This document shows positions 9,356 to 51,530 of a stretch of 64,000 nt of DNA, one piece after another (within the stretch, counting starts at the first letter, position 1; every line of letters begins with the position of its first letter). Under the pieces are notes generated by a model. The model saw only the letters and a list, made by a program, of their open reading frames with translations. It searched no databases and was not told the DNA's origin. Made by a program: the position numbers and the translations under genes. This stretch comes from Eledone cirrhosa (lineage: Eukaryota): contig OZ024749.1 in NCBI GenBank assembly GCA_964016885.1, positions 24,242,001-24,306,000 of the forward strand. The letters run 5' to 3'.

Positions 9356-9905
9356 TTTTAGAATATATTTTGTAGTCAATGTTACGGCGATGATTCTCTT
9401 TATATTGAAATAGAAAGAGAAGCATCGCCGTAGCATTGACTACAAAATATATTCTAATAGAAATACATTTTATAAACACACGCACGCACGTACGTACGTA
9501 CGTACGTTCGTGTGTGTGTGTGTGTGTGTATATTTATGCATATGTATTTACATATATTTATTAGTTTCTCAAATTCTCCCAAATTTTTCATATGGAATGT
9601 TATGTTTATAATCCATAAATTTCCAATTGCAATAATGATAACATTTAAAATTTAATCACTTTAAACACTTCACAACTAATTCTTAAGTAATTACTAAGTA
9701 ATTATTCTTAGTATATTTTATTTGTTTGTTTCATAATTACTATGTCTTCCACTCACACGCTGGCACACACAATATCACTCAATCACACTCTCTCACATAT
9801 TTATATATACATATAAATGTGTGTGTGTCTGTATATATATATATATGTATACAAATAGATGTGTATATATGTATATACAGTATATATATGTGTTTGTGTA
9901 TGCTT

Positions 9906-10070
9906 GGTCGCTTTCGAGTGCTACTGGTAACATGTAATCAGTACAACCTATCTTAGTCGTTGGCGACTAAAGCGGCAACGCCACCAGCTAGCTTGGTGAT
10001 ATTTGGACACCCTGGGGAATGAAATACGAGACACGGCAAAGGGCGGAGGAACTCAGCATAGTCAACGCCT
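9906..10070 (+). ncRNA. Divergent copy of the structured 5' motif (candidate ribozyme)
   Basis: Shares GTGCTACTGGTAACATGTA, CAGTACAACCT, TCGTTGGCGACTAAA, GGCAAC, TTTGGACA, CAAAGGGC, AGTCAA with 19742-19923. Confidence 0.5.
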
Positions 10071-10420
10071 GACCAAATAGTATTTTTTTGGTTTTATTTT
10101 CACCTGGGAGTGACAGGCCCCCAGTTGTTTTCACAACACTTTTCTAGGAGAGCGAAAAAGCCTGCGGCTTTAGGAGCATCCGATGATGTTGACCAGTTCT
10201 CCCTTTTCGGGTTGTTTTCGATGCTCAGGGAGTGGGAGTGGTCGAGAGCAAATCCTTTCCCCACTTCAAAAAACCTTCAAAGCGCGGGTATTGCTTGTTC
10301 AGGATATGTTACAGGTTCGTCTGGCTGGACTTAGCCTAAAGTCGCACCAAACTCTATGATCTGACAAGTAATTGCAATACCTCTGTAGTAGTAATGACAT
10401 TCTGTCATTTCTACTACAGA

Positions 10421-10495
10421 GGTCTGACGAGCTTCTGATTCCGGAGTCGGGCCAGATCGAACCTTGTGCTCATCAGTTGCAAAACGCGCGTCACC
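10421..10495 (+). ncRNA. Hammerhead ribozyme with GAAA changed to AAAA
   Basis: GGT-CTGACGA-GC..GC-AAAA-CGCGCG-TC-ACC, then AATAAA; the change is consistent with CpG decay. Confidence 0.7.
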
Positions 10496-15986: not shown

Positions 15987-16252
15987 TCCCAAAAGTCAGC
16001 TCAAAAGTGACACAGAGGAGACTGAGGTTGGCTGGACATGCTCACCGACATCCAGAGTTGACATTGCACTCAGTGCTCCTTTGGGAGCCCCTACATGGAC
16101 ATACTAGAAGAGGAAGACCAAGCTTAACATATGTTGATGCCATAAGGACAGACACTGGTCTGTTGGAGATGCAGGATATGGCAGCGATAATGAGGGACAG
16201 AGAACGCTGGAGAGAACTCGTCCATGGATCTCGGGAATTTTACCCGCCTTAG
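15987..16252 (+). mobile_element. RTE-type LINE 3' fragment
   Basis: [36 protein letters not shown], ending in TAGA/TA repeats. Confidence 0.85.
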
Positions 16253-19655: not shown

Positions 19656-19741
19656 GTATGTATATATGTATGTATACATATATGTATGTATATATGTATG
19701 TATATATGTATGCATATATGTATGTATATATATATATGTCA

Positions 19742-20346
19742 GGTCACCAGTTGGTGCTACTGGTAACATGTATCCCAGTACAACCTGTCTCATGGTCGGG
19801 TCGTTGGCGACTAAACTGGCAACTCCACCAATGTTTCTTGGTGAGGAGGGTGACTTTGGACATCCTGCAGGACTAAAAACACAACTTGTCAAAGGGCAAA
19901 GGAGCTGTTAAGAGTCAATGGCCACCCAAAATCACCGGGAGAGATGACCCCTTAGCCTTTGTCAAGGCAGAATTCTAGGAGAAGGTAAACTCTGTTATAA
20001 CACCTGCAACTCTGATTGTATCCAATGATGTTGAATTGTTCTTCTTTTTGGTAAATATTATCTTGGTTAAGAGAGTGGGACTGGCTTTGTGCAGTGCCTT
20101 TGCTCACTATAAAAGCTTCACAGCACAGCCATTGCTTTATATCTGGAGATCTCTCTGCACTTGTCGTCACATGGTACAATGGGCCCAGCACAATGTGTCA
20201 ATAATTGTCACAAGTGTAGTGCTTGTACCAGAGTCTTCAAGTCGCTGGCTGGACTAAAAAGTCACACTCGTTCAGAGCATCGGTTGAGGTTCTCCTCCAT
20301 GGATATAAAGTAGTGGCCGTACTCGAAAACGAGTTGACAGCCACCA
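19742..20346 (+). mobile_element. About 600-bp non-coding element resembling an RTE 5' UTR, with structured 5' motif
   Basis: Contains CTAGGAGAAGGTAAACTCTG, which I recall from RTE 5' UTRs; a second copy is at 51149-51530; bounded by microsatellites. Confidence 0.65.
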
Positions 20347-20431
20347 TATATATATATGTATATATATATGTATATATGTATATGTATGTATATATATATA
20401 TGTATATATATATGTATATATGTATATGTAT

Positions 20432-50825: not shown

Positions 50826-51148
50826 CTATTTATGTAGCTTTTAATATGTTTAAGGATGTTGCTAAGGTGGTAGGTTTCGCAAGTGGAGCATGCTATTATA
50901 GATCTTAATTTGAGGTCATTATGTGAAGGGATATTGATGAATATATCTGTGATTCCTTTGTATGTGTTACTTATATTTTCACTTTTATGTATCTTAGGAA
51001 TACCAAATAAAAACTAGATTCACTCATTAATTTCTGCTGACTGTAGTGTTCGGCCTTTTCAGTATATGTTTCGTCTTCTAAAATGGAGATAACTATAGTT
51101 ATCCGTCTCCAATATGACTGTATGTAAGTATATTCATATATGTACATA

Positions 51149-51530
51149 CATGGTGGCTGCCAACTGGTTTTCGAGTACGGCCACTACTTTATATCCATGT
51201 AGGAGAACCCCTACCGATGCGCTGAACGAGTGTGACTTTTTAGTCCAGCCAGCGACTTGAAAACTCTGGTACAAACACTACACCTGTGACAATTATTGAC
51301 ACATAGTGTTGGGCCCATGGTACCATGTGACGACAAGTGCAGAGAGATCTCCAGATATAAAGCAATGCCTGTGACGTGAAGCTTTTATAGTGAGCAAAGG
51401 CACTGCACAAAGCCAGCCCCACTCTCTTAACCAAGAAGATATTTACCAAAAAGAAGAACAAGTCACCCTCCTCACCAAGAACCCTTGGTGGGGTTGCCAG
51501 TTTAGTCGCCAACGAGCCGGCCATGAGACA
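51149..51530 (-). mobile_element. Second copy of the 19742 element, 5'-truncated and internally deleted
   Basis: Aligns to about 19786-19856 joined to about 20037-20346. Confidence 0.8.

Follow-up and report, generated by a model that had tools for sequence, protein, structure and literature searches.

The window, meaning the whole stretch of 64,000 nucleotides of Eledone cirrhosa DNA that was analysed, hosts three related copies of a repeated element, as an earlier sequence-only reading of this DNA had reported. The first, at 19738..20347 (+), is a bipartite non-autonomous RTE element of a 608-nt type (family B), made of a 5' head, an RTE 5' UTR, the 3' end of an RTE ORF and a CAT/TATG tail, and has copies 97% identical throughout the genome. 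The second, at 9902..10360 (+), is a decayed copy of family A, 81% identical to the 5' end of the full-length RTE L122, and carries many private changes with respect to the family majorities. The third, at 51141..51530 (-), is a family-B copy, 5'-truncated and internally deleted; its first base falls just past the core of the RNA knot described below, and the copy is devoid of a structured core. The two copies that had been regarded as complete are indeed both placed directly 3' of TA/TATG microsatellites, in a host genome of 3.0 Gb which is rich in microsatellites. The motif is repeated far beyond chance. At least 1402 candidates were found in the own genome for family B, the best 40 showing 97% identity, and at least 2234 for family A, an older family, 79-84% identical to the copy at 9906; one core pattern has 2058 exact matches. 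The own-genome search may miss distant variants of the head.

Downstream of the head, the element at 19738 carries at 19936..20135 (+) a conserved region of the RTE 5' UTR, with CTAGGAGAAGG at 19975, which is found also in RTEs with other heads, and which we take to be the conserved mid-UTR domain of RTEs. The stretch at 20161..20298 (+) is a relic of the C-terminal C2H2 zinc finger of the RTE ORF, detected by weak zf-C2H2 matches below the cut-off. A few other features of the window were recorded. A piece of the RT C-terminus of another LINE lies at 15995-16222, and a near-perfect inverted repeat at 10379-10423, downstream of the family-A copy. The minus strand at 19726-19821, across the knot, matches Rfam RMST_5, a conserved region of a mammalian lncRNA (11.5 bits, E 2), probably by chance, possibly as an old RTE relic. 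The output of the whole-window Rfam scan and of the repeat finders was swamped by microsatellite and miRNA matches, and the mapping of TSDs is confounded because the insertion targets are microsatellites.

The head as the 5' end of RTE elements

RTE LINEs, and the bipartite deletion derivatives of ~600 nt that they have left in high copy number, have this motif at their 5' tip, as seen from loci carrying the family-A RT, which open with the whole head, and from one locus (L060) where the family-A head is joined to RTE 3' parts, namely the RT C-terminus and two zinc fingers. Among 20 loci fetched around the family-A RT, 7 open with the whole head, located ~620-630 bases before the endonuclease motif; 2 start inside the head, 3 just past it, and the remainder are truncated further in. 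The head thus sits at the 5' end of autonomous and non-autonomous elements alike, and the earlier description of a pseudoknotted RNA heading an RTE-type 5' UTR was right. The bipartite build is evident in family A, as both ends match 3.9-kb RTEs and the interior is deleted. The 3' half of family B ends in a C2H2 zinc-finger relic; a full-length parent of this family was searched for and not found. Passages of PMC5786205 describe bipartite non-autonomous RTE elements as a known type, consisting of a 5' UTR and an RTE 3' end, with a microsatellite tail and no ORF, and describe also a conserved mid-UTR domain in RTEs.

The exact position of the 5' end was derived from 40 copies taken in genome order, selected by a pattern which did not include the first 26 bases of the element. 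Of these, 36 reach the GUC at the start of the knot with two mismatches at most (three are borderline), and are preceded only by microsatellite or unique DNA. Two further carriers of this head are family F, whose UTR and the family-E UTR are 86-92% alike, and L281, a third full-length RTE lineage. Family E (L133-L144), also an RTE, is young, with frames still intact that reach 1245 codons, and has three zinc fingers. The knot was found as head in none of 12 family-E loci, and an HDV core in none of 8; since the family is young and intact without either, the knot is not required. Five family-E copies share an upstream extension of 0.5-1 kb, which may be a captured promoter. At one locus (L279, G000:C2:147900500-147906000) a knot head is followed by a LINE of another kind, whose endonuclease is ~30% identical to that of family E; known from this locus and a likely duplicate, it may be a chance junction. 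Tandem clusters (L023, L027, L036, L130, L141 and others) arise where copies of the three families A, B and F have landed in one another's TATG tails.

Structure and conservation of the knot

The first 57 bases of the family-B element (19738..19794, +) can be folded into a three-way junction with two pseudoknots, similar to a class 1a xrRNA. In the window copy, P1 is formed by 19740-44/19783-87, the P2 hairpin by 19745-56, and P3 by 19758-63/19775-80; C19757 separates P2 from P3, and the loop L3 spans 19764-74. The pseudoknot PK2 pairs 19767-70 with 19791-94. Of the two bases preceding P1, G19738 is predicted to pair with C19781, and U19739 to form a triple with A19759-U19779. The layout is common to all heads: GU, P1 (CAGGU/ACCUG), a P2 hairpin of 12-23 nt, a single C, a P3 of 6 bp opening with U-A and A-U, an 11-nt loop, a C plus one base, the 3' strand of P1 and, 2-3 bases further on, four bases complementary to the middle of the loop. 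A bulged hairpin follows at 19795..19820 (+), in the position of the viral P4, with GUCGG/CYGGC on GUCG/CGAC and a UAAA bulge; 35 of 35 and 29 of 32 cells are paired, with little covariation. The rest of the shared head (19821..19927, +) carries more short hairpins, CACCAAG/CUUGGUG, AGGGUG/CACCCU, CRGG/CCYG (with an A-U/G-C swap) and CUC-N4-GAG, and altogether ~130 further bases of the head are conserved along with the knot. The TACTGG/CCAGTA helix and the CACCA/TGGTG hairpin noticed earlier are both real. In the copy at 9902-10360 P1 is damaged, and a 7-nt deletion removed the 3' strand of PK2 (50.5 bits vs 89.9). The three-way junction is the minimum-energy fold of the isolated core for the window copy and for the foreign homologue L210, not for the foreign homologue L201.

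Homologues in other organisms were searched through an alignment of RTE endonuclease N-termini, covering the best 80 of 325 confirmed metagenome loci and the 2 relevant genome-bin loci of 4. A homologous head was found in 2 of these 82 loci, L201 and L210; their proteins share 46-52% identity with one another and with family A. A model (R1) built without L201 still finds L201 with 64.7 bits; the head of L210 has no DNA match in the own genome. A strict descriptor of the knot has one match in the window and two in 323,626 bases of foreign RTE loci, each at a head and none antisense. In a collection of viral contigs neither relatives of the RTEs nor the motif were found. Two further loci deserve mention. 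The 5' end of L202, sister of L201 in the protein tree, looks like a decayed knot from which P2 has been deleted. L225, an RTE in a bacterial genome bin (likely animal contamination), has a UTR 77% like that of family B and an unrelated head.

Pairing was counted in 10 heads chosen by hand, from 8 related families of the own genome and the 2 foreign contigs. Of 200 pair cells, 97.5% are paired, and slid controls range from 29 to 49%. Seven of the 20 pairs have changed on both sides (three in P2, two in P3, two in PK2), the double changes in P3 and PK2 coming from L210 and L201 alone; this result is not equalled in any of 500 shuffles. As an example, P3 is UACUGG/CCAGUA in the window copy and UAUCGG/CCGAUA in L210; PK2, set in register, is CAUG/CAUG in the window copy, CCUG/CAGG in L201 and GCUC/GAGC in L210. 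P2 varies from 12 to 23 nt and is still paired, and a fourth, longer P2 in a contig of another organism (30 loose letters, run X6) pairs as well. A small subfamily has a C-A mismatch in P3. These counts represent support and not a probability, since the structure itself was used to fit the alignment, the heads are related to one another, and the pseudoknot of L210 stands one column off. A tree of the RTE proteins, built by a quick method after dropping 25 of 91 rows (alignments shorter than 200 aa), requires three changes to account for the knot-headed rows; 88 of 500 shuffles are as low, and the tree therefore shows neither a single nor a multiple origin of the knot.

According to passages of PMC10747610, PMC8917146, PMC8571300 and PMC7527734, class 1a xrRNAs are built on a three-way junction, with a U.A-U triple between S1 and P3, a G-C pair between S1 and S3, a C between P2 and P3, P1 as CAGG/CCUG, a free L2, a pseudoknot of 2-7 bp between L3 and S4, and a P4 hairpin. 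As judged from letters and pairing, the first 57 bases of the RTE head have the secondary structure that defines this class. In the 10 heads the cells of P1 and P2 are 100% paired, those of P3 96.7%, and those of PK2, which is 4 bp long, 92.5%, with L210 counted one column off. The G of the GU preceding P1 faces the C of S3 as G-C in 10 of 10 heads (PK1), and the second S3 base varies among A, U and C; the pair is invariant, and is thus shown by position rather than by covariation. The U of the GU and the A-U second pair of P3, which occupy the positions of the triple, are likewise invariant in all 10, the contact itself being predicted. The single C between P2 and P3 is present in 10 of 10; P1 is CAGG in 8 and CGGG in 2, with a G-U kept. 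The P4 hairpin stands after PK2. Across distant lineages, almost no variation is seen in the L3 letters that flank the pseudoknot strand, U-A on either side of it. The spacing from the last L3 base to the first base after P1 is 15 nt, in line with the class 1a ring of ~15 nt, which is closed by a pair between an A ending L3 and a U following P1; in the RTE heads L3 ends in C, with an A one or two bases earlier, and L201 has a C after P1. RF01415 (Flavivirus_SLIV) is the best of 4227 Rfam families for the window copy, with 24.5 bits and E 0.012 over a 105-nt stretch chosen afterwards, and 20.7 bits in another scan; it is also the top family for L201 (15.4 bits, E 1.2), and L210 has no xrRNA match in Rfam at E<=10. 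Against the 3-Gb own genome, with 64 candidates scored, the model has three matches, all heads of this element, the highest at 29.6 bits. All these scores are far below the gathering cut-off of 54.5 bits, hence the head is not filed as an RF01415 member.

The sequence-only reading had proposed a different fold, a group I-like core akin to the lariat-capping ribozyme GIR1. We regard such a ribozyme as very improbable. The pairings said to survive sequence change, GTCGCTTT/AAAGCGGC in one copy and CCAGTT/AACTGG in the other, belong to different alignment registers and pair different columns, and are therefore not one covarying helix. In 34 family-A rows, including the 9906 copy, and 39 family-B rows, AAAGCGGC occurs in 2 and 0 rows, and CCAGTT in 0 and 34, respectively. 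The word taken for the Q element, AATCAGTA, occurs in 1 A row and no B row (1 of 73), that taken for S, CATAGTC, in 2 A rows and no B row (2 of 73); most of the resemblance to Q, S, P3 and P6 is owed to changes private to a single decayed copy. The CAAC/GTTG helix is not kept, as the 3' strand is GTTG in 3 of 34 A rows vs GTCG in 17. In favour of group I stand a likeness of GCGACTAAA to the R element and the crossing GACT/AGTC pair, which 7 of 8 aligned heads can form; against it, this pair never covaries, and P7 is broken in L201, where one of its four pairs is kept. In 8 aligned heads the group I structure has 75% of cells paired and a single double change, and 433 of 500 shuffles are as high in covariation; the core (P3, P6, P7, Q, S) is neither conserved nor covarying. 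In the knot, the strands assigned to P6 and P3 belong to P1, S3 and P2, which do covary. At full length, the two complete copies fold no better than shuffles (z -0.30 and +0.92). No match at E<=10 was obtained in Rfam for group I, GIR1, HDV, twister or pistol. The same reading was correct in setting the motif apart from HDV, twister and hammerhead ribozymes, as no Rfam match was found and an HDV descriptor detects nothing in these heads. Other folds were tried and discarded. The HDV core P3-L3(UCC)-P3'-P1'-GG-P4-CNRA-P2' is absent from both window elements and from 7 full-length family-A heads. Twister, pistol, hatchet and hammerhead were rejected by eye against their motifs, along with the absence of Rfam matches. 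An end-to-end GGUCR/YGGCC helix seemed compensatory between families A and B, and breaks in family F. The alternative helix GGUCGCU/GGCGACU, also proposed earlier, can form to a large extent (51 of 56 cells pair), shows no compensatory change, and competes with P1; it may represent a second conformer.

HDV-like heads and a natural exchange of heads

HDV-like ribozymes have been located at the 5' ends of RTE, R2, R4, Ingi and LOA elements (Ruminski 2011, as cited in passages of PMC5786205). We looked for their core in 60 foreign RTE loci with at least 700 upstream bases. The first version of the descriptor was too strict (1 of 60) and was loosened twice; with the last version, to which the counts refer, 10 loci have an HDV-like core, 2 the knot, none both, and 48 neither. 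Antisense controls gave 0 of 60 and shuffles 5 of 300, and no knot-headed RTE tested has the core. HDV-like heads were seen upstream of the ORF at L146, L148, L169 and L207; P1, P2, P3 and J4/2 are canonical, and L3 contains a hairpin insertion (26-29 nt loop).

A second RTE family of the own genome, with a 903-aa frame and DUF6451, has a native head with an HDV-like core (L106). Twelve native copies were fetched: the core pattern is present in 4, and L301 and L304 start with the P1 of the HDV-like ribozyme. The native head (L106, oriented 1780-2090; L301, L304, L307, L309) has a long J1/2, a P3 GGC/GCC and L3 UCCAAGC, and was missed by the Rfam scan. A chimeric form, in which the first 274 bases of family B precede the body of this family, exists as well; its junction has at least 20 exact matches, dispersed over 10 contigs, the native junction at least 15; as the patterns, of 25 and 27 letters, were matched exactly, both counts are lower bounds. 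Of the 12 chimeras fetched, 9 extend to the G of the knot: 8 reach its start, and a ninth carries an inverted piece that ends at this G; the others, 3 in number, are truncated. Six chimeras have unique flanks, and in all of these the G is the first shared base, preceded by T, C, A, T, A and A. On the evidence of these junctions, one RTE family has swapped its HDV-like ribozyme head for the knot, and has kept spreading.

Proposed function and relation to known systems

The head of these RTEs carries the sequence and pairing pattern of class 1a xrRNAs, and likely works as one, stalling 5'-3' exoribonucleases. Other RTEs free themselves from the host transcript by means of a ribozyme at the 5' end (PMC8501958; Ruminski 2011, as cited in passages of PMC5786205). 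The knot may do the same job by other means. Copies of the RTEs would be transcribed by read-through from host DNA, and decapping, or a cut upstream, would open the host leader to trimming by XRN1/XRN2. The enzyme would halt at the ring-shaped knot at the first bases of the element, leaving a unit-length, decay-resistant template for target-primed reverse transcription. That read-through transcripts are trimmed to the knot by XRN1/XRN2, giving a stable template of unit length, is in our opinion probable, and to this extent the earlier notion that the motif deals with the 5' end of the element was probably right.

Class 1 xrRNAs stall Xrn1 four bases upstream of PK1, with no need of protein (PMC12081666). 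Unlike these halt sites, chimeric copies show no fixed four-base leader before the G of the knot, which is the chief difficulty for the exonuclease model. The unpaired overhang could be dropped by the RT, or the RNA could be cut at the G, and the latter possibility keeps alive the hypothesis of a new ribozyme class with this fold, which cleaves itself just 5' of the G and resists nucleases as a side effect. The start of the shared sequence at the G rather than four bases upstream, as in the HDV-like heads L301 and L304, which begin at the cleavage site, speaks for such a ribozyme, as do the replacement of an HDV-like ribozyme by the knot in a family that kept spreading, and the near invariance of the L3 letters not engaged in the pseudoknot. 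We consider it improbable nonetheless, because the tertiary contacts of class 1a xrRNAs explain every conserved letter of the junction, no known ribozyme model or descriptor fits, the consulted passages on xrRNAs describe no catalytic member, and the sharp 5' boundary is the sole pointer to catalysis. It is similarly unlikely that the head acts chiefly as an internal promoter for Pol II, or as a structure bound by proteins or ribosomes, in which the xrRNA-type fold is a captured relic or serves RT binding or translation. A promoter would also produce uniform 5' ends and rescue a family that lost its ribozyme; the ~130 bases conserved beyond the knot, and the long upstream extension to which family E has turned instead, also speak for this reading. 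A DNA promoter leaves the compensatory changes in P3 and PK2 and the free length of P2 unexplained, however, and the knot stands at the extreme 5' end, where a block to exonucleases would be useful.

xrRNAs are described as viral structures (PMC12397905, PMC7527734, PMC12081666). None of the papers listed by the literature searches, subscription journals and supplements not included, deals with a natural xrRNA in a transposable element; the supplementary alignments of RTE 5' ends in PMC5786205 may show the head. We are inclined, though by no means firmly, to believe that a flavivirus-type knot serves RTEs in several animal lineages as a portable 5' module, and that host exoribonucleases carve the template out of read-through transcripts, which would make the knot a natural xrRNA outside viruses. 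If true, this would be a third route to the 5' end of non-LTR elements, beside promoters and ribozymes, and the match in class 1a letters would point to an exchange between retrotransposons and flaviviruses, in either direction. The shared fold may result from capture from a virus, from a gift to a virus, or from convergence. Putative xrRNAs have been reported in marine flaviviruses, one of which is a squid virus (PMC8128465). Should the knot resist Xrn1, the question of where non-LTR elements that lack a promoter get a defined and stable 5' end would have a new answer and, given these marine viruses, the origin of flaviviral xrRNAs could be put to the test. Thousands of potential decay-blocking modules would be present in the host genome, and could leave sfRNA-like fragments of host transcripts. 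The knot bears also on genome writing from RNA templates, in which R2 donors are limited by 5' stability (PMC12222951).

Group I introns and GIR1 resemble the RTE head only in short look-alikes of P and R, and P3, P6, P7, Q and S are not conserved in it. In build, the window elements are ordinary members of the bipartite non-autonomous RTEs, the structure of the head not being described in the passages of PMC5786205 devoted to them. The job proposed for the knot is that of the HDV-like and twister ribozymes of other RTEs. HDV-like heads share with the knot the position and the clade; in either case the 5' boundary of the element coincides with an RNA module, and in one family the two have been exchanged. 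The knot head, however, lacks the HDV core, and would block a host nuclease instead of cleaving. Twister variants at the 5' end of Perere-3, thought to free the element from the host transcript (PMC8501958), are again structured RNAs at an RTE 5' end; the knot differs in having no twister match, and no part of its structure supplied by the target site. The closest likeness is with the class 1a xrRNAs of flaviviruses (ZIKV, MVEV, DENV), with which the knot shares the three-way junction, the GU before P1, P1 as CAGG/CCUG, C-G as first pair of P2, the single C between P2 and P3, A-U as second pair of P3, C as first base of S3, a 4-bp pseudoknot between L3 and S4, and a hairpin downstream. Flaviviruses make sfRNA by exonuclease stalling at xrRNAs. 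The RTE knot differs from them in the first P3 pair and the last P1 pair, both U-A, in an 11-nt L3 ending in C, in occurring as a single copy, in an Rfam score far below the cut-off, and in a resistance which is predicted only; the ring-closing A-U pair of the ZIKV xrRNA is not clearly kept in the RTE heads. Above all, the viral structures sit in the 3' UTR, the RTE knot at the extreme 5' end of a retrotransposon.
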